From: a bacterium
GTDB taxonomy: Bacteria > Patescibacteriota > Patescibacteriia > JAACEG01 > JAGUWE01
DNA length: 64,000 nt
Direction: 5' to 3'
Assembly (NCBI GenBank): GCA_043798995.1
Contig: JAZDOD010000008.1
Coordinates: 119,468-183,467, forward strand
Shown: one piece after another, positions 18,997 to 39,190 of the stretch
Layout of the letters: the number at the start of each line of letters is the position of its first letter
Position numbering within the stretch: position 1 is the stretch's first letter
Position numbers and translations under genes: made by a program
Notes under the pieces: generated by a model
Database searches by the model: none
What the model saw: the letters and a program-made list of their open reading frames with translations, nothing else
What the model was told of the DNA's origin: nothing

Positions 18997-19962
18997 ATGC
19001 CGAGATGTTTTTACTTTCCTAAAACACGGAGCAAGCAATTGTCGAAGGGATTCAACTCTTCTTTATCAAACGTGATTGATGATCTAAACTGGCGTTTCGA
19101 CAAGACACAACGAACTAAAGCAGAAGAGAAGCACTTTAAACACGACAGAAAAAATTTGCACGAGAAGATAAAAGCAGAAACAGGAGGAGATACGATCAAA
19201 AAAACCATAGATGCGACTAACGAAATATTAAAAAAGTTAAGAATAGATGAAATCGACATAAGCCTATTTAAAACTTTGACTCCATATGATAGTGCCGAAC
19301 TCGTTTTCCCTTTTGATGGTTTTGAACTACCAATTGGACAAGGTGGCTCAGGTATAGAAATGGCCGTTGCTATTGCGTTTTTAGAGTCATTAGCAAAGAT
19401 TTCAAAAGAAGACATCGTTATTGTAATTGATGAGCCAGAATTGCACCTACACCCAACACTTCAAGAGAAGATTTTTAATCATTTCAAAGAAATATCGAGC
19501 GAAATTCAGATTATCGTTTCAACTCATTCGCCCTTTTTGTTTAGGAATGTTTATCAAAACAGTAAAGTTCAGTTGCTTTTAACAAAAAATGAAAGTGATA
19601 AAATCCTAATCCAAGACGCCAGGTCTTCTGAATTTGGGTTGTTAAATTGGAGTCCATCGTGGGGAGAAATATGTTATTTTTCTTACGATTTGCCGACAAT
19701 TGAATTCCACGATGATTTATATGCGAGTTTGCAGGACAAAAACGGAACGGAAAGTATCGCTGCAACAGAAACTTGGTTGATAGCTAATGGGCAAGCAAAG
19801 GAAATTAAATGGAAAGACGACAAAGACATTCAACAAGAAGAAACTTTAATGACCTATATAAGAAACAGAATCCATCACGGCGATAATCAAAATAGGCCAA
19901 TGTATTCTCCCGAACAGTTGAGAGATTCAATAGCGCGAATGATTACTTTACTAAAACTATGA
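18997..19962 (+). CDS. ABC/AAA_21-type ATPase, C-terminal part (signature, Walker B, H-loop) with an HEPN-like RNRIHH tail
   Basis: GQGGSGIEMAVAIAF, IVIVIDEPELHLHP and IIVSTHSP motifs. It is in a different frame from 18513-18953. Confidence 0.55.
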   Translation: MPRCFYFPKTRSKQLSKGFNSSLSNVIDDLNWRFDKTQRTKAEEKHFKHDRKNLHEKIKAETGGDTIKKTIDATNEILKKLRIDEIDISLFKTLTPYDSAELVFPFDGFELPIGQGGSGIEMAVAIAFLESLAKISKEDIVIVIDEPELHLHPTLQEKIFNHFKEISSEIQIIVSTHSPFLFRNVYQNSKVQLLLTKNESDKILIQDARSSEFGLLNWSPSWGEICYFSYDLPTIEFHDDLYASLQDKNGTESIAATETWLIANGQAKEIKWKDDKDIQQEETLMTYIRNRIHHGDNQNRPMYSPEQLRDSIARMITLLKL

Positions 19963-21664: not shown

Positions 21665-24600
21665 ATGAGCGAGTTTTCCGAAGACAAATTAATAGAGCAA
21701 ACTGCTATCAAATTTTTCGGCGAGCTTTGGTCCGCTTCCGCTAAAGCTACAGCGGACAAGGGCGCTGAGAATTTCGTGAATGCTTATTCAGACGAGGGTG
21801 ACGCACGACTCGGACGAGAAAACCAGGGGCAGGTTGTTTTGATGAAATATTTAAAACCAGCACTTGAACGATTCAACCCTGATGTATCTACCGAGGGCTT
21901 AAACCTCGCGATCGACGAGATTATAAAAGACCGCTCGGCGATGAGCATGGTGAATGCGAACCGTGAAGTATGGCAACTACTTCGGGACGGCGTAAGGGTT
22001 GAGACGGAAAATGAAAAAGGCGAACAACAGACCGAGACAGTAAAGATTATTGATTTTGAAAATCCAAAAGAAAATCACTTTATGCTCGTATCCCAGCTTT
22101 GGGTAACCGGCGAATTGCATAAACGCCGTCCCGACTTAATTGGCTTTGTAAACGGCTTGCCGCTTGTGCTGATTGAGCTGAAAGCATCGCACAAAAATCT
22201 TCGCAATGCCTACCAGCAAAACATTCGGGATTACAAAGACACGATTCCGCAGCTTTTTTGGTATAACGCTTTTATAATTATTTCCAATGGTATTGAAAGC
22301 AAAGTTGGCACAATTACCGGCGCGTATGAACATTTCAACGAATGGAAGAAAATCAAGGACGAAAAAGAGGTTGGAAAAGTAAGTTTGGAAACGGTAATCA
22401 AGGGCACCTGCGAACCAGCGCGGCTTTTGGATATTATTGAAAACTTTATTCTTTTTGACGACTCCCGCGGAGAACGCGCCAAAGCGATTGCCCGATATTT
22501 TCAATTTTTCGGAGTGAACCGTGCTTTTCTGCAAGTTCAAAATCGGGAAAAAAATAAGGGCCGCCTCGGTGTTTTCTGGCACACGCAAGGGTCCGGCAAA
22601 TCATATTCAATGGTTTTCTTGTCTCAAAAAGTGTTTCGTAAGCTGACCGGAAATTTTACTTTTGTCGTGGTCACAGACCGCAAGGAACTTGATAGGCAAA
22701 TATACAAGACCTTTGCCGCCTGTGGCGCTGTTTACGAAAACGAAGTCCATGCCGATTCCGTAGAACATCTTAAGCAACTGCTTAAAGAAGACCACCGCCA
22801 TGTTTTTACGCTTATCCATAAATTTGCCGAACCAAAAGAATTATCAAACAGAAGCGATGTGATTGTGATGGCCGATGAAGCGCATCGCACGCAATACGAC
22901 CGCATGGCGGCAAATATGCGCATTGCGTTGCCTAAGGCATCATTTCTTGGCTTTACCGGCACGCCCTTGATGGCTAGCGGTGAAGAAAAAACCCGAGAAG
23001 CTTTCGGTGATTATGTCTCAACATACAACTTCGCGCAGTCAGTAAAAGACGGAGCTACGGTTCCCCTTTATTACGAAAATCGTGTTCCAAAACTGGAGAA
23101 TGTAAATCCGGATATTCAGAAAGATTTGGAACGGGTAATGAATTTTTACGATCTTGCGCCGGAAGAAGAGGAAAAACTGGAACAAGAATTTTCAACTTTC
23201 TATCATCTGATAACCCGCGAGGATCGCTTGAATAAAGTCGCAGAAGATATTGTCGCGCACTTCACCGCTCGAGGATATAACGGAAAAGCAATGGTTGTTT
23301 CTATTGATAAGAAAACGGCTATTCGAATGCACGCCAAAGTCAAAGAACAAATGCAACGCCATTTGGCAAAATTGAATATAGCTTTATCCAAAGCTGCTGA
23401 CGAACATGAAAAAGAAAAGATTCGGCAAATCATAGAACAATACGAAGGAATTGATATGGCAGTAGTGGTAAGCCAAGGCCAGAATGAAATCGCCGACATG
23501 GAAGAATTTGAGATTGATATGAGGCCGCTTAGAGCTCGTATGCAAAATGAAGATTTGGAAACCAAATTTAAAGATCCCGACAGCAACCTACGCATTGTCT
23601 TTGTTTGTGCAATGTGGATTACCGGTTTTGATGTTCTCAACCTTTCAACGCTCTACCTTGATAAGCCGCTTAAGAATCACACACTGATGCAGACCATCGC
23701 CCGCGCTAATCGAGTATATCCGGGTAAAACAAACGGCCTTATTGTTGACTACATCGGCGTATTTAGAAATATTCAAAGAGCCCTCGCAATTTATGCTACT
23801 CCGGAGAGCGGCGCGTCAATCGACGACATTATTAAAGAAAAAGAAGCACTCGTTGAGTTGTTGGTTTCAACCGCCACACAGACGAGAGGATTCTTAAAAA
23901 AGCTTGATCTTGATGTTGATAAATTGCTGAAAGCAAAAGACGCAGAAAAGATACGCCTTGTTGATGTATTCACAAATCGTATTTTGCAGGACGAACAGAC
24001 GAAGAAGAGATATCTTGATTTTGCGTCAGATGTCTACCAACTTTACAAAGCGGTATTGCCCGAGCCCAAGGCGGAAGATTATTATCAAGAAGTTATGGCC
24101 TTTAAAGTGATCGCTTCTCGTATTAAAGAAGTCATTGAGGAAGAAGCTGATGTCAGTCAAGTAAAAAAAGACCTTGAGGATTTGCTTGACCGTTCTATAA
24201 AGGCGGGAGAGTTTGTAATCAAGGAGCCAAAACTGAAAGATTTAAGTCATATTGACTTTGAAGCGCTCCGGAAATTTTTTGACGACACTGAAAACAAAAA
24301 CATTGCCGCTGAAAGTTTAAGTGCCGAGCTTGAAGAAAAAATCAAAGAAATGGCGCGGAAAAATAAGATCCGCAAACATTTTCTTGATCGTCTTAATTTA
24401 TTGATTAACGAGTACAATTCCGGCTCTCGCGATCTCGACTCATTTTTTGAAGAACTTCTCGCACTCGCAAAAGAATTAAGCGAGGAAGATCGCCGGGCGA
24501 TAAAAGAAAACCTCACGGAGGAGGAATTGGCGATATTCGATCTTCTTGCGAAGGAAAATCTTAACCCCGATGAAGTGGAGAAAGTGAAAAAAGTTGCGCT

Positions 24601-24820
24601 TGAGTTGTTGGCTAAACTTAAAGCAGAAAAGTTTGTCTTGGATTGGAAGCGGAAAGAGGAAACGCGGGCTGATGTGAAAATAACAATCCGGGATATGCTA
24701 TATGATAATTTGCCCGAGCCAGCGTACTCCGAACAAGATTGCGAAGACCGGACACAAAAAGTTTATTTCCATGTTTACGACAATTATGTGGACGCAAAAA
24801 TTAATGTTTACGCGCAGTAG
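21665..24820 (+). CDS. hsdR: type I restriction enzyme R subunit HsdR
   Basis: N-terminal PD-(D/E)xK motif (VLIELKAS), helicase motif I (HTQGSGKS), DEAH box (VIVMADEAHRTQY) and later helicase motifs. Confidence 0.9.
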   Translation: MSEFSEDKLIEQTAIKFFGELWSASAKATADKGAENFVNAYSDEGDARLGRENQGQVVLMKYLKPALERFNPDVSTEGLNLAIDEIIKDRSAMSMVNANREVWQLLRDGVRVETENEKGEQQTETVKIIDFENPKENHFMLVSQLWVTGELHKRRPDLIGFVNGLPLVLIELKASHKNLRNAYQQNIRDYKDTIPQLFWYNAFIIISNGIESKVGTITGAYEHFNEWKKIKDEKEVGKVSLETVIKGTCEPARLLDIIENFILFDDSRGERAKAIARYFQFFGVNRAFLQVQNREKNKGRLGVFWHTQGSGKSYSMVFLSQKVFRKLTGNFTFVVVTDRKELDRQIYKTFAACGAVYENEVHADSVEHLKQLLKEDHRHVFTLIHKFAEPKELSNRSDVIVMADEAHRTQYDRMAANMRIALPKASFLGFTGTPLMASGEEKTREAFGDYVSTYNFAQSVKDGATVPLYYENRVPKLENVNPDIQKDLERVMNFYDLAPEEEEKLEQEFSTFYHLITREDRLNKVAEDIVAHFTARGYNGKAMVVSIDKKTAIRMHAKVKEQMQRHLAKLNIALSKAADEHEKEKIRQIIEQYEGIDMAVVVSQGQNEIADMEEFEIDMRPLRARMQNEDLETKFKDPDSNLRIVFVCAMWITGFDVLNLSTLYLDKPLKNHTLMQTIARANRVYPGKTNGLIVDYIGVFRNIQRALAIYATPESGASIDDIIKEKEALVELLVSTATQTRGFLKKLDLDVDKLLKAKDAEKIRLVDVFTNRILQDEQTKKRYLDFASDVYQLYKAVLPEPKAEDYYQEVMAFKVIASRIKEVIEEEADVSQVKKDLEDLLDRSIKAGEFVIKEPKLKDLSHIDFEALRKFFDDTENKNIAAESLSAELEEKIKEMARKNKIRKHFLDRLNLLINEYNSGSRDLDSFFEELLALAKELSEEDRRAIKENLTEEELAIFDLLAKENLNPDEVEKVKKVALELLAKLKAEKFVLDWKRKEETRADVKITIRDMLYDNLPEPAYSEQDCEDRTQKVYFHVYDNYVDAKINVYAQ

Positions 24821-24844
24821 TTTGTGAGGTATATTCGAAGTTGA

Positions 24845-24997
24845 AATAGTGAAGTACCTATCCCACCTCTCAAAACCCAAAAACAAATTGTCGCCAAACT
24901 TTCCGCGGCCCAGGATTATAAAAAACAGCTTTTTGAACAGCGAACTAAATTGAAAGAATTATTTGATAGCGTCCTCCACAAATCTTTCAACGCCTAA
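24845..24997 (+). pseudogene. hsdS: hsdS remnant (C-terminal conserved region only)
   Basis: Translates to PIPPLKTQKQIVAKLSAAQDYKKQLFEQRTKLKELFDSVLHKSFNA, the conserved HsdS repeat region, with no TRD. Confidence 0.5.
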
Positions 24998-25047
24998 TAA
25001 CATACCAACAAACTTGAGAATGTTGGGATATTGTATATAATAAAAAT

Positions 25048-25332
25048 ATGGGGAAAATGAAAACCGCAAAACAAATGGAGCGACACCTTAAAGGTATGGC
25101 GAATCATTACCGTATTGAGATACTGCTTCTTATTGCCGAACGCGATGGAATAACGCTTGAAGATATTGTTGAAACACTCGGCGCCAACGAGAAGACTATA
25201 GGCGAGCACACGCGACGACTCTTTCAGGCGGGACTTATCAATAAAAAGTACCGCGGCAAATTTGTAGAGCACACGCTGTCGCCATACGGAAAAACATTCG
25301 TCAGCTTTCTCAAATCATTTCAACGTATATAA
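25048..25332 (+). CDS. ArsR/SmtB-family small HTH regulator (paralog 1)
   Basis: MANHYRIEIL...TIGEHTRRLFQAGLI HTH. It is flanked by 24-bp direct repeats at 25009-25032 and 25344-25367. Confidence 0.7.
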   Translation: MGKMKTAKQMERHLKGMANHYRIEILLLIAERDGITLEDIVETLGANEKTIGEHTRRLFQAGLINKKYRGKFVEHTLSPYGKTFVSFLKSFQRI

Positions 25333-25394
25333 CAACATCCTTACAAACTTGAGAATGTAAGGATATTTTAAACTTAAATATAAATAAGATAAAG

Positions 25395-25510
25395 ATTCCG
25401 TTACTGCCTCTCGAAACCCAAAAACAAATCGTTGAAAAACTCTCCGCGGCGCAGGAATACCCCAGTAGTAGAACGCAAAGCGTTCACTACGGGGCAGGCA
25501 AAAAAAAATA
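25395..25510 (+). pseudogene. hsdS: second orphan hsdS conserved-region fragment
   Basis: Translates to KIPLLPLETQKQIVEKLSAAQEY. It shares about 85% nucleotide identity with 24866-24918. Confidence 0.4.
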
Positions 25511-25549
25511 AGGAGAGAAGATCATTGTTAACTTAAAAAATTTAGGCGT

Positions 25550-26038
25550 ATGAAAAAGAAAGAAAACAATTTCGCGTTTATAGACGGCCAAAACCTTAAT
25601 CTCGGCATTCAAAGCTTGGGCTGGAAATTGAATTATTGGCGTTTTAGAAAATATCTTGCGGAAAAATATTCGGTAGCAACGGCGTATTACTTTATCGGTT
25701 ATGTAGCCGGTAACCAGCCGCTTTATTCCGAACTGCAAAAAGCCGGCTATGTGTTGGTGTTTAAGCCAACCATTCCAGATGGTGATGGAAATGTAAAGGG
25801 CAATATAGATGCCGATCTGGTTTTACAGGTGATGATTGATTTTCCAAATTATGATCAGGCAATCATTGTTTCAAGTGACGGAGATTTTTATTCGCTGGTA
25901 AAACATCTTTATCAAAACAATAAGCTGCGTTTTGTGATGAGTCCGTATATCAAAACTTGCTCAACTTTACTGAAAAAGGAAGCAAAAGAGAGAATTGTAT
26001 TTATGGATAATTTGCGAAAAAAGCTTGAATATAAATGA
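25550..26038 (+). CDS. NYN (LabA-like PIN) domain protein
   Basis: FIDGQNL at the N-terminus and IVSSDGDFYSLVKHL later, both NYN hallmarks. Confidence 0.7.
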   Translation: MKKKENNFAFIDGQNLNLGIQSLGWKLNYWRFRKYLAEKYSVATAYYFIGYVAGNQPLYSELQKAGYVLVFKPTIPDGDGNVKGNIDADLVLQVMIDFPNYDQAIIVSSDGDFYSLVKHLYQNNKLRFVMSPYIKTCSTLLKKEAKERIVFMDNLRKKLEYK

Positions 26039-26278
26039 AAAAGCACCGCTCGAGGACGAAACCTAAAGAGGTGCTCTCTCCTGTGAATTCTAATTAAAGA
26101 ATATTCCTATTATCAAATTTTGTCAAGTCTAAAAAATGTGGATAACTAAAAATTCGAAAAATCCGAGAAATAAAGCCAAAATTGGTTGAACCCCGAAGCA
26201 GTCCGACGCAAGGTCGGACACTACGGGGCAGGCAAAAAGTTGAACCCTTCGGTATACTCAAGGTGAAAAAATAAAATT

Positions 26279-26605
26279 ATGGAAAATGGAAAAGAGGACC
26301 AAATAATTAAAAAAATTGAAGAATTTTTTGAAGTTCCGGAGAGGGTTGCCGATAAAGTCAAAAATGTAGCAGAAAAAGTTAAGGGTGGTTATGTTTTGTT
26401 TGAAACGCGGCCTTGCTGGGACAGTTCTCCCGGCCCCTGGACTAAATTACCGGTGGCTAAAATTGTTTTTCATAAATCCACTCAAATCCGGAAGCTTTAT
26501 TGGATGCGGGCTTCTGGCAAATGGGAGCTTTATGGGCAATACAAAACATTAAACAGGGTTCTGAGGACAATAGAAGAAGATAAACACGGCTGTTTTTGGG
26601 GTTAA
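26279..26605 (+). CDS. hypothetical protein (Trp-rich, about 108 aa)
   Basis: Good coding statistics and an AAGGTGA Shine-Dalgarno sequence. No family recognised. Confidence 0.4.
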   Translation: MENGKEDQIIKKIEEFFEVPERVADKVKNVAEKVKGGYVLFETRPCWDSSPGPWTKLPVAKIVFHKSTQIRKLYWMRASGKWELYGQYKTLNRVLRTIEEDKHGCFWG

Positions 26606-26670
26606 TTCATAATTTAACAACATTCTCATATTCTGCAGAATATAAGAATGTGTGATATAATGGAATTGGT

Positions 26671-26955
26671 ATGAAAACAAAAACGGCAAAACAATTAGAG
26701 AGACACTTCAAAGGCATGGCGAATCATCACCGTATTGAAATTCTGAGGTTAATTGCTGAAAACGAAGGCATCAGTTTGGAGAGTATTGCGGGAAGTTTGG
26801 ATTGTAATTTCAAAACCATTTCTGAGCATACTAGGAAATTAGTTCAAGCCGGGTTGGTTAATAAAAAGTATCACGGCAGAATGGTTGCTCATTCTCTCTC
26901 GCCTTACGGCAAAATTTTTTATGAGTTTGTAAAACATTTCCAGGTTTCTAAATAA
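26671..26955 (+). CDS. ArsR/SmtB-family small HTH regulator (paralog 2)
   Basis: About 60% identical to the 25048 protein. It is flanked by direct repeats containing the palindrome ATTCTGCAGAAT. Confidence 0.7.
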   Translation: MKTKTAKQLERHFKGMANHHRIEILRLIAENEGISLESIAGSLDCNFKTISEHTRKLVQAGLVNKKYHGRMVAHSLSPYGKIFYEFVKHFQVSK

Positions 26956-27037
26956 CATTAATAACATTCTCATACTCATATTCTGCAGAATGTTGGAATG
27001 TCAAAATTTAGAGAAAAAGTAAAATGGAAAATGGACT

Positions 27038-27778
27038 ATGAAAAAGGTTTTGATTATAATTTTTATTGGTTTAGTAATAATTTTGGTCTGGTTTTTGCTT
27101 CCTAAAAAGGAATCAACAAACCAAAATCAATTTATGGGAGAAAAAAATTATTCTTTTGATAAGAATGGTTATATGGTGCTTCCCGAGCCAAGAAAGGAAA
27201 GCAAAACATCAATCGAAGAGGCGCTTTTAAAAAGGCGGAGTATTAGAGAATATAAAGACGAAGCGTTAAGTCTAGAAGAAATTTCTCAAATTTTATGGTC
27301 AGCTCAAGGAATTACTGCTCCAGAGCAGGGCGGTCGAACCGCTCCTTCAGCTGGCGCCCTCTACCCCTTGGAAATCTATTTAGTAGTAAGAAAAGCAGAA
27401 AATCTTGAGCCGGCTGTTTATCACTATTTGCCCGATGGTCATAAAATAGAAAAAGTTTTAGAAGGAGATGTTAGCGAAGATTTAGCCAAGGCAGCTTTAA
27501 ATCAGATGTTTATAAAAGAGGCGCCAGCAAACATAGTAATTTCAGCAGTTTTTTCTCGGACTACCTCAAAATACGGCGAACGAGGTAATCAATATGTTTA
27601 TATGGAGGCTGGCCATGTTTCCCAAAATATTTATTTACAGGTTGAAAGTTTGGAATTGGGGACAGTATCAGTAGGAGCTTTTTCTGGCGAAGAAGTTAAA
27701 AGAATTTTAAACCTGCAAGAAGAAATCCCCCTATACATAATGCCGATTGGGAGGATTAATAAATCCCGCACCTTTTAG
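27038..27778 (+). CDS. membrane-anchored nitroreductase-family protein
   Basis: N-terminal TM. Nitroreductase fold motifs ([28 protein letters not shown]). Confidence 0.7.
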
Positions 27779-39079: not shown

Positions 39080-39107
39080 AGCAGGCCTCAAAAACCTGCT
39101 TTTTTTA
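39080..39107 (+). terminator. rho-independent terminator
   Basis: AGCAGG-cctcaaaaa-CCTGCT + T7. Confidence 0.7.
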
Positions 39108-39190
39108 TTTACCCTGAGTTTATCGAAGGGTTTTATCCCCTTGAATTTTTGCTTAATTTGGAATATAATTAGGAAGTAATATTCTTCAAA

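Follow-up and report, generated by a model that had tools for sequence, protein, structure and literature searches.

A hairpin upstream of an NYN gene and a DUF3024 gene in a Patescibacteria defence island is probably a copy of a widespread palindromic insertion element

The closest known kind to the element described here is the GTAG-tagged repetitive extragenic palindromic (REP) element. In the sections covered here of the survey by Di Nocera et al. (2013, PMC3733652), such elements are palindromes of 20-40 bp, with stems of 5-13 bp and loops mostly of 2-4 nt, that go with RAYT (REP-associated tyrosine transposase) transposases. They are recognized by an unpaired terminal GTAG (or CGTC) tag, by tens to thousands of copies per genome and by a RAYT gene flanked by repeats; Patescibacteria are not among the hosts treated in those sections. 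The Rickettsia palindromic elements (RPEs) are selfish palindromic DNA lying in frame in housekeeping genes of host-dependent bacteria with reduced genomes, where the peptides they add are apparently tolerated (PMC10969869). The present report concerns a short palindrome, here called H, found in three copies (H1, H2 and H3) in a 64-kb stretch of a Patescibacteria genome (contig JAZDOD010000008.1), the whole of which is referred to below as the window. H1 and H2 lie upstream of two consecutive genes, one with an NYN domain and one with a DUF3024 domain. We consider it likely that all three are copies of a previously undescribed, REP- or RPE-like selfish palindromic insertion element that occurs throughout the Patescibacteria, or Candidate Phyla Radiation (CPR). 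Literature searches for the sequence itself, and for CPR in combination with REPs, MITEs (miniature transposable elements with inverted repeats) or palindromic elements, returned no prior description.

An earlier note on this DNA had drawn attention to a 20-nt motif upstream of both genes, preceded each time by a different perfect hairpin inside a CCCC...GGGG outer stem. The motif, CACTACGGGGCAGGCAAAAA, is indeed present exactly twice in the window, with no further site at up to three mismatches, but its positions are 25485-25504 and 26219-26238; the first interval had been placed 5 nt too low (25480-25499) and the second was 2 nt too long (26217-26238). It never occurred in 100 shuffles of the window, so that chance (0 expected) is excluded as the origin of the two copies. 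In each copy the motif forms the 3' strand of a long hairpin, and its end is separated by 45 nt from the NYN start codon (ATG at 25550) and by 40 nt from that of the DUF3024 gene (ATG at 26279). The features concerned are the following.

25459-25508, plus strand: H1, full copy (covariance-model match, 71 bits, E = 4e-19)
26190-26238, plus strand: H2, full copy with a CCCCG/CGGGG clamp, a reduced middle helix and the tail CAGGCAAAAA (56.4 bits, E = 1.5e-14)
13925-13962, minus strand: H3, TCCCCGAAGTA-AATAC-CTC-GTATT-ACTACGGGGCAGGC, upstream of radC (36.1 bits, E = 4e-8)
25550-26038, plus strand: NYN-domain (LabA/DUF88-like) gene, 162 aa, downstream of H1 (Pfam NYN, E = 2.4e-14)
26279-26605, plus strand: DUF3024 gene, downstream of H2 (Pfam DUF3024, E = 5.8e-25)

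The two different hairpins and their common outer stem were borne out by the sequence and by RNA folding. H1 reads A (25459), CCCC (25460-63), A, GTAGT (25465-69), A, the inner hairpin GAACGC-AAA-GCGTTC (25471-85), ACTAC (25486-90), GGGG (25491-94), CAGGC (25495-99) and a run of A. The CCCC and GGGG form the clamp, the GTAGT/ACTAC middle helix, which the earlier note had not mentioned, is complete with two unpaired A, and the computed fold of the core has an energy of -21.6 kcal/mol (z = -6.8). The inner hairpin of H2 is GTCCGAC-GCAAG-GTCGGAC (26201-26219); its clamp (26191-94 with 26225-28) is extended to CCCCG/CGGGG, its middle helix comes down to AG/CU, and the fold including flanks reaches -24.4 kcal/mol (z = -2.2).

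H is found across the Patescibacteria. When one genome per species (GTDB; 185,579 species genomes) was scanned with the 18-mer ACTACGGGGCAGGCAAAA, 40 loci were retrieved. About 30 have the full hairpin architecture, in which CCCC[AG][AG]TAGTA and a perfect hairpin, its sequence varying by locus, precede the 18-mer; nearly all of these are in metagenome-assembled genomes of Patescibacteria (Saccharibacteria, Nomura-, Zambryski-, Moran-, Brenner-, Doudna-, Nealson-, Kaiser- and Portnoybacteria, and Parcubacteria). The remainder comprises about six plain chance matches in genes of other phyla and a few partial or variant elements. A covariance model built from a 30-copy alignment of the species-scan copies recognized three copies in the window, H3 being the third, and about 14 more in about 270 kb of other CPR DNA, several of them devoid of the A-rich tail. 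The tail common to H1 and H2, CAGGCAAAAA, is one of several variants. A metagenome scan with the pattern CCCCAGTAGTAN{9,25}ACTACGGGG, anchored on the arms to remove the tail bias, yielded at least 120 loci. In these copies the base before CCCC is A in 76%, and GGGG is followed by C (90%), A (79%), R, G (80%) and then free sequence, frequencies that define the core A-CCCC-A-GTAGT-A-[stem-loop]-ACTAC-GGGG-CARG(Y). Among viral contigs a 14-mer gave chance matches within coding regions only and a 17-mer gave none. By the terms of the earlier note, its idea would have been refuted had the motif occurred only here with no structural conservation in relatives; this is clearly not the case: the motif recurs widely with a structure that is conserved and under selection.

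From these copies, H can be described as a unit of 36-50 nt with two conserved arms, CCCCAGTAGTA and ACTACGGGG. A CCCC/GGGG clamp encloses a GTAGT/ACTAC helix, offset by two unpaired A on one strand, and then a perfect inner stem of 4-9 bp whose sequence is variable and whose loop is usually 3 nt; the 3' tail is CARG(Y). H1 differs by a single nucleotide over about 46 nt from a copy in the UvrD gene of another Parcubacteria genome (L150; L numbers designate locus records). Three look-alike copies with different flanks share one contig (L281), and inverted dimers and clusters are seen in L147, L164, L179 and L265. Some copies lie in a GC-rich repeat context, GGCGGCGGAAA-H-CA(A/G)GAAGCGAGGGCGGGCCCCGAAGG..., and form tandem or inverted arrays of at least three copies within 150 nt (L164 174-321, L181, L230, L233, L239, L272 and L277). 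Elsewhere (L159 5105-5139, L161 1326-1390, L166 6458-6506) the 3' half of the element, TTTACTACGGGGCAGGCAAAAATAAAATG, is joined to a different 5' strand (CYTGC..CGTATAAT), which pairs with GCAGG and UACG instead; such forms represent copies that have been rearranged or else another structural variant. Bona fide copies were also seen on short contigs in bins labelled Desulfurellaceae, Elusimicrobiota, Planctomycetia, Gammaproteobacteria and Aminicenantia (L138, L148, L152, L153, L154, L158 and L170). Four of them (L138, L148, L154 and L158) have the same flanks and the same stem, and these are probably CPR contigs in wrong bins.

The compensatory change that the earlier note had seen between the two inner hairpins is genuine and general. 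Over the 30 aligned copies 89.9% of cells are paired, and 64 cells have changed on both sides, compared with 18 ± 3 after shuffling and 6-15 with a slid partner column; as the 3' arm was held constant by the search pattern, all of this covariation falls within the inner stem. In the inner stems, which comprise 126 distinct sequences, 565 of 600 pairs (94%) are Watson-Crick. Mismatches of the G·T type, which would be G·U on the H strand, number eight, and those of the A·C type, G·U on the other strand, number seven. The loop is 3 nt long in 77 of 109 cases. Intergenic copies stand in every relation to both neighbours: 41 co-directional, 25 anti-directional, 16 between convergent and 13 between divergent genes. 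The symmetric rarity of G·T and A·C, the triloops and the use of both orientations point to constraint on a DNA palindrome, not on a strand-specific RNA.

These data bear directly on the proposal, made in the earlier note, that the hairpin is a cis-regulatory RNA common to the NYN and DUF3024 genes, for instance a hairpin in the 5' untranslated region (UTR) that regulates or stabilizes the downstream message or provides a ribosome-binding site. Some properties do recommend such a function: both window copies are oriented with their genes and lie 35-40 nt upstream of them, a promoter-like box precedes H2, the GGGG end falls 10-16 nt before an ATG at many loci, where CAGG(T/C) could act as a weak Shine-Dalgarno sequence, and at orthologous sites the arms persist through compensatory changes of the stem. 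Yet the genes downstream of H are unrelated housekeeping genes, the 25 anti-directional intergenic copies are antisense to both neighbours, as several intragenic copies are to their genes, G·U wobbles are no commoner on the H strand than on the opposite one and triloops predominate. Rfam had no match at the gathering threshold in the whole window and none on H at E<=10 (25380-26300). Together with the absence of H at close NYN homologues described next, this leads us to abandon the idea of a shared regulator and to regard a cis-acting RNA as very unlikely.

More than 100 cluster representatives, from Wolfe-, Doudna-, Nealson-, Giovannoni-, Wildermuth- and Gribaldobacteria, share 80-94% identity with the NYN protein. 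We sampled 14 locus records of these homologues, which amount to seven distinct gene neighbourhoods (e.g. after ruvA, after DUF4015, or next to DpnI, TrpRS or GmrSD). At close homologues (90-94% identical), string searches and the covariance model found no H either upstream or downstream in any of the seven distinct loci, which shows that the element and the NYN gene are not linked. The NYN gene is a neighbour of H and not its partner, and so is the DUF3024 gene. The neighbourhood of the NYN/LabA-like gene differs each time and often includes restriction or defence functions (HsdR here, DpnI in L171 and L214, GmrSD/Bro-N in L007-10), pointing to a single gene that either moves horizontally or is under unusual constraint. 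A separate peculiarity concerns its 3' end (26030-26085): the stop codon and the next 45 nt, ...TATAAA TGA AAAAGCACCGCCAAGGGACGGAACCCGAGGAAGTGCTTTTTC, are common to all close homologues (L001, L003, L007, L171, L173 and L174) and contain a conserved hairpin, with compensatory change at two base pairs only, followed by a U-rich run. If the T of TGA is skipped, the +1 frame of this region encodes EKAPPRDG... (EKAPLEDET* in the window), a match to the sequence ...KEKAPIKDEP* with which the distant NYN homologue of L214 ends in frame. Recoding to the +1 frame may take place here, or the region may be a terminator that has been conserved.

That H is gained as a discrete unit is best seen in pairs of filled and empty sites. 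The LigA protein of L137 and its 99%-identical cluster carry 13 extra residues, TPVVEHKTFTTGQ, missing from about 50 homologues, the closest of which has 77% identity. The DNA shows an exact, in-frame insertion of 39 nt, present in L137 and absent from L175 (TTGAAG[ACCCCAGTAGTAGAACACAAGACGTTCACTACGGGGCAG]GCAAAATAT vs CTTAAG--CCAAAATAC), so that the element includes either the A at position -1 or the CAG(G) tail. The same two loci provide a second filled (L137) and empty (L175) pair 82 nt upstream of the LigA gene, where the insert is 36 nt long with TTCG on both sides. Copies in the sense orientation lie within the intact reading frames of UvrD (L150), Pth (L227), a D-Ala-D-Ala carboxypeptidase-like protein (L219) and L212. 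Antisense copies, read as PRSE..STTGV, lie within those of ProRS (L257), KsgA (L258) and iPGM (L185); alignment of KsgA to solved structures places the extra segment between two conserved halves. The peptide encoded by H adds 11-13 residues and varies both with orientation (PSSRTQSVHYGAG vs PRSE..STTGV) and with the stem. No constant target-site duplication emerged from 141 independent copies compared on all diagonals, the weak signal being one of base composition, and a duplication of the flanks was not seen in 33 of the 37 copies tested.

Insertion within genes also speaks to the possibility that H serves the host as structural punctuation without being mobile, whether as a terminator, a stabilizer of mRNA 3' ends or a site for a nucleoid protein, roles that have been put forward for certain REPs. 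In its favour are the stability and GC clamp of the hairpin, the superphylum-wide conservation of the arms and the 16 copies between convergent genes. However, neither strand has a U-tract (the plus strand continues CAGGCAAAA and the minus strand is variable), a terminator scan of 24800-27100 returned 0 sites, copies occupy 13 divergent promoter regions as well as the inside of open reading frames (ORFs), and the filled and empty sites reveal recent gain. We consider this role highly improbable.

Compared with the GTAG REPs as presented in those sections of the survey (PMC3733652), H is likewise a small imperfect palindrome with a very short loop and complementary stem changes between sub-families. 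It has GTAG beside its stem-loop, occurs as singletons, inverted dimers and clusters, lacks a target-site duplication and is occasionally found in frame within genes, notably those of replication and repair (LigA and UvrD in the case of H). In contrast to the unpaired terminal tag of the REPs, GTAG in H adjoins the inner stem on both strands (GTAGTA on the plus, GTAGT on the minus strand), pairs with CTAC and is enclosed by the clamp. Unlike REPs, moreover, H has arms conserved superphylum-wide around an almost free stem, a low density of tens of copies per Mb, and no RAYT gene among the families listed near its copies. The RPEs share with H the in-frame insertion into unrelated housekeeping genes and the apparent tolerance of the added peptides; they differ in that RPE-1 is about 100-150 bp long with a conserved peptide and resides in Rickettsia, whereas H is three times shorter, unrelated in sequence, has a peptide that depends on orientation and is hosted by Patescibacteria. 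MITE-like repeats (Correia, ERIC, BOX and the Coxiella QMITEs) are, like H, dispersed and sometimes intragenic; all are non-autonomous and can add promoters, sequences resembling ribosome-binding sites, or hairpins. Those repeats measure at least 100 bp and have terminal inverted repeats and defined target duplications, unlike H, which is a single hairpin with no constant duplication.

In its behaviour H resembles a selfish insertion of the REP or RPE type. It enters genomes as a self-contained unit with no constant target duplication, lands in intergenic DNA in either orientation and, within genes, survives only if the reading frame is kept and the addition is tolerated. As an imperfect palindrome it probably folds into a single-stranded DNA hairpin or a cruciform, and this fold is probably what an enzyme acting in trans recognizes; a RAYT-like HUH/Y1 transposase or another recombinase would be a candidate. 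Once in place and co-oriented with the genes, H1 and H2 would be transcribed into the 5' UTRs of the NYN and DUF3024 messages as stable hairpins, and might incidentally affect mRNA stability or translation.

Several observations weigh against a selfish element. No transposase or recombinase family is enriched among those listed for 150 genes within 400 nt of copies, and none appears among the families listed for the 47 genes of the window or for 10 hand-picked neighbours. The copy number is modest (three per 64 kb here), and the unrelated inner stems of the three window copies give no sign of recent proliferation in this genome. Conservation of the arms extends over a whole superphylum, and at orthologous sites (group A loci) they are kept while the inner stem is replaced; a conserved function in the host would account for this no less well than selfish spread does. 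Start codons lie 10-16 nt beyond the end of many intergenic copies, so that CAGG may double as a weak Shine-Dalgarno-like site of use to the host. Finally, some copies adjoin duplicated gene fragments, and simple insertion leaves these junctions unexplained.

The latter copies lend some substance to a further suggestion of the earlier note, that of a recombination site. In this scenario, the folded H would resemble the attC site of integrons and be used by a site-specific recombinase to move and reshuffle cassettes such as H-NYN-H within defence islands. Like attC, H combines short conserved arms with a variable imperfect palindrome that owes its polarity to unpaired bases (the two conserved unpaired A make it asymmetric), and it lies between cargo genes; it flanks a gene of a defence island both in the window and in L214, although the likeness is one of analogy only. 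In the window, H1 starts exactly where the second of two hsdS remnants loses its similarity to the first, and a decayed 5' end of radC precedes H3. In L214 a distant NYN homologue (47% identical) has H copies before and after it. The arrangement on its downstream side is homologous to that at H2, with H followed by AAAAAGTGGAACCCTTCGATAAACTCAGGG, and the H copy plus 30 nt corresponds to H2 plus 26239-26263. The L214 block lies between two copies of a unit made of H and the first ~190 nt of a gene for a 378-aa protein, the second copy being cut off by another H. Elsewhere, H stands at a 30-nt duplicate of the rpsN 5' end that differs at five positions, each time synonymously (L133), and, in L132, at a tRNA 3' half next to an intact tRNA-Thr and at a 20-nt repeat. 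The NYN genes, too, are found in restriction-modification or defence contexts (HsdR in the window, DpnI in L171 and L214, GmrSD in L007-10).

In favour of the earlier suggestion, several copies lie exactly at junctions with truncated gene duplicates and the L214 NYN gene is again flanked by H, but no recombinase was found: neither an integrase nor a recombinase is among the families listed near copies, and no adjacent intI or attI was seen among them. The attC cores RYYYAAC and GTTRRRY are absent from H, the GTTGAAC beside H2 forming direct and not inverted repeats. Solitary insertions of 36-39 nt without cargo, single copies in ORFs in both orientations as well as in intergenic DNA, fit a mobile palindromic repeat better; 33 of the 37 copies tested have no flank duplication, and close NYN homologues elsewhere do without H. 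A dedicated recombination site is therefore a minority reading to which we attach a small probability. An equally small one goes to a combination of the two ideas, in which H would be the site of a Patescibacteria-wide enzyme that acts on an attC-like DNA fold, with both self-propagation and the gain, loss and duplication of cassettes (H-NYN-H) as outcomes. Were an attC-like enzyme at work, genes would be shuffled by a system particular to the CPR superphylum.

The genomes of Patescibacteria are tiny and streamlined and are thought to carry few classical transposons. H shows that selfish or recombinogenic DNA persists in them from Saccharibacteria to Parcubacteria, and that it can add 11-13 residues to LigA, UvrD, ProRS, KsgA, iPGM and Pth, all of them core housekeeping enzymes. 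On the practical side, H accounts for spurious ORFs, for gene starts that are split or duplicated and for odd insertions in proteins of the CPR, and it might serve to flag CPR contigs that ended up in a wrong genome bin. Its sequence also offers a handle for finding the enzyme that recognizes it, in a clade whose mobile-element biology is almost unexplored. As for the present locus, the suggestion of a dedicated regulator common to the NYN and DUF3024 genes is removed.

Other leads were followed and dropped. An IS-like structure in L269, with inverted H-containing repeats around one ORF, proved to contain a DHO_dh-like ORF and not a transposase. ARAGORN found no tRNA overlapping H, which disposes of an origin from tRNA or tmRNA, one copy abutting a tRNA 3' fragment. 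A link to the 16S 338F/341F primer region was set aside as the string matches in the literature are primer listings and the similarity looks superficial.

H1 and H2 would seem to mark a rearranged stretch of a restriction-modification (defence) island. A type I system comprises an HsdM-S fusion (16230-18509) and HsdR (21665-24820; Pfam), and HsdR is followed in the gene list by hsdS remnants, two winged-helix regulators, the NYN and DUF3024 genes and a nitroreductase (Pfam). The remaining genes of the window, whose G+C content is 31-43%, are housekeeping genes including those for SecA, SecDF, type IV pili, TGT and ribosomal proteins, in keeping with a Patescibacteria chromosome. Additional features around H1 and H2 are these.

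25395-25459, plus strand: second remnant of the hsdS C-terminal conserved region, IPLLPLETQKQIVEKLSAAQEY (direct reading; direct-repeat family D4, 85% identity over 53 nt)
26120-26146, plus strand: promoter-like TTGTCAAGT...TGTGGATAAC between the NYN gene and H2 (putative function)
26185-26193, plus strand: left copy of the repeat GTTGAACCC bracketing H2 (direct reading; not present at the homologous H of L214)
26239-26263, plus strand: right copy of GTTGAACCC (26239-26247), overlapping a 21-nt motif, AACCCTTCGGTATACTCAAGG, that recurs elsewhere

The first hsdS remnant is at 24845-24996, and its similarity to the second stops exactly at the CCCC of H1. Both remnants are without a start and lie downstream of hsdR, the functional specificity domain being the one fused to HsdM (16230-18509). 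On the other side of the NYN gene, the earlier note had read the sequences bracketing H2 as a CCGAAG/CTTCGG stem. The pair, TTGAACCC(CGAAG)/TTGAACCC(TTCGG), is present, but what brackets H2 is the 9-nt direct repeat GTTGAACCC (26185-26193 and 26239-26247); the stem is missing from the minimum-energy fold of this copy and competes with the CCCCG/CGGGG clamp. The 21-nt motif, AACCCTTCGRTAWACTCARGG, has three sites, at 26243-26263 (plus strand) and about 39100-39130 (minus strand) in the window and at 12329-12349 in L214; it follows directly on the H tail at H2 and in L214, and no obvious H accompanies the site near 39.1 kb.

If the promoter-like box at 26120-26146 is functional, H2 falls within the 5' UTR of the DUF3024 transcript. 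The box GTGGATAAC, often after TTGTCA or TTGACA, recurs in many CPR intergenic regions, and TTGTCA(A)-N-TGTGGATAA(C/T) is found in intergenic DNA at many Patescibacteria loci, where it looks like the common promoter of the clade with an extended -10 box. In the region upstream of radC (13861-14010), a decayed duplicate of the radC 5' end (MAKIKDLPK..PEQR vs ..IHDLPKEERPRER) precedes H3, which is on the minus strand. In the ORF 13861-14670 the Pfam match to RadC starts at residue 49 and the true start is at 14008, so that the long ORF is probably an over-extended gene call.

Within the island itself, an AAA_15 ATPase gene that is broken into two ORFs (18513-18953 and 18997-19962) interrupts the restriction-modification operon, as does an AAA_14/DUF4143 gene. 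The two winged-helix genes (25048-25332 and 26671-26955) are ArsR/MarR-like paralogues of 94 aa, and four related palindromes flank them, at 24992-25035, 25327-25370, 26612-26651 and 26971-27001 (TAACAACAT..stem..AAACTTGAGAA / TTCTGCAGAA..stem). The stems of these palindromes differ in compensatory fashion from copy to copy and two of the four overlap promoter-like TATAAT boxes; they are probably operators.

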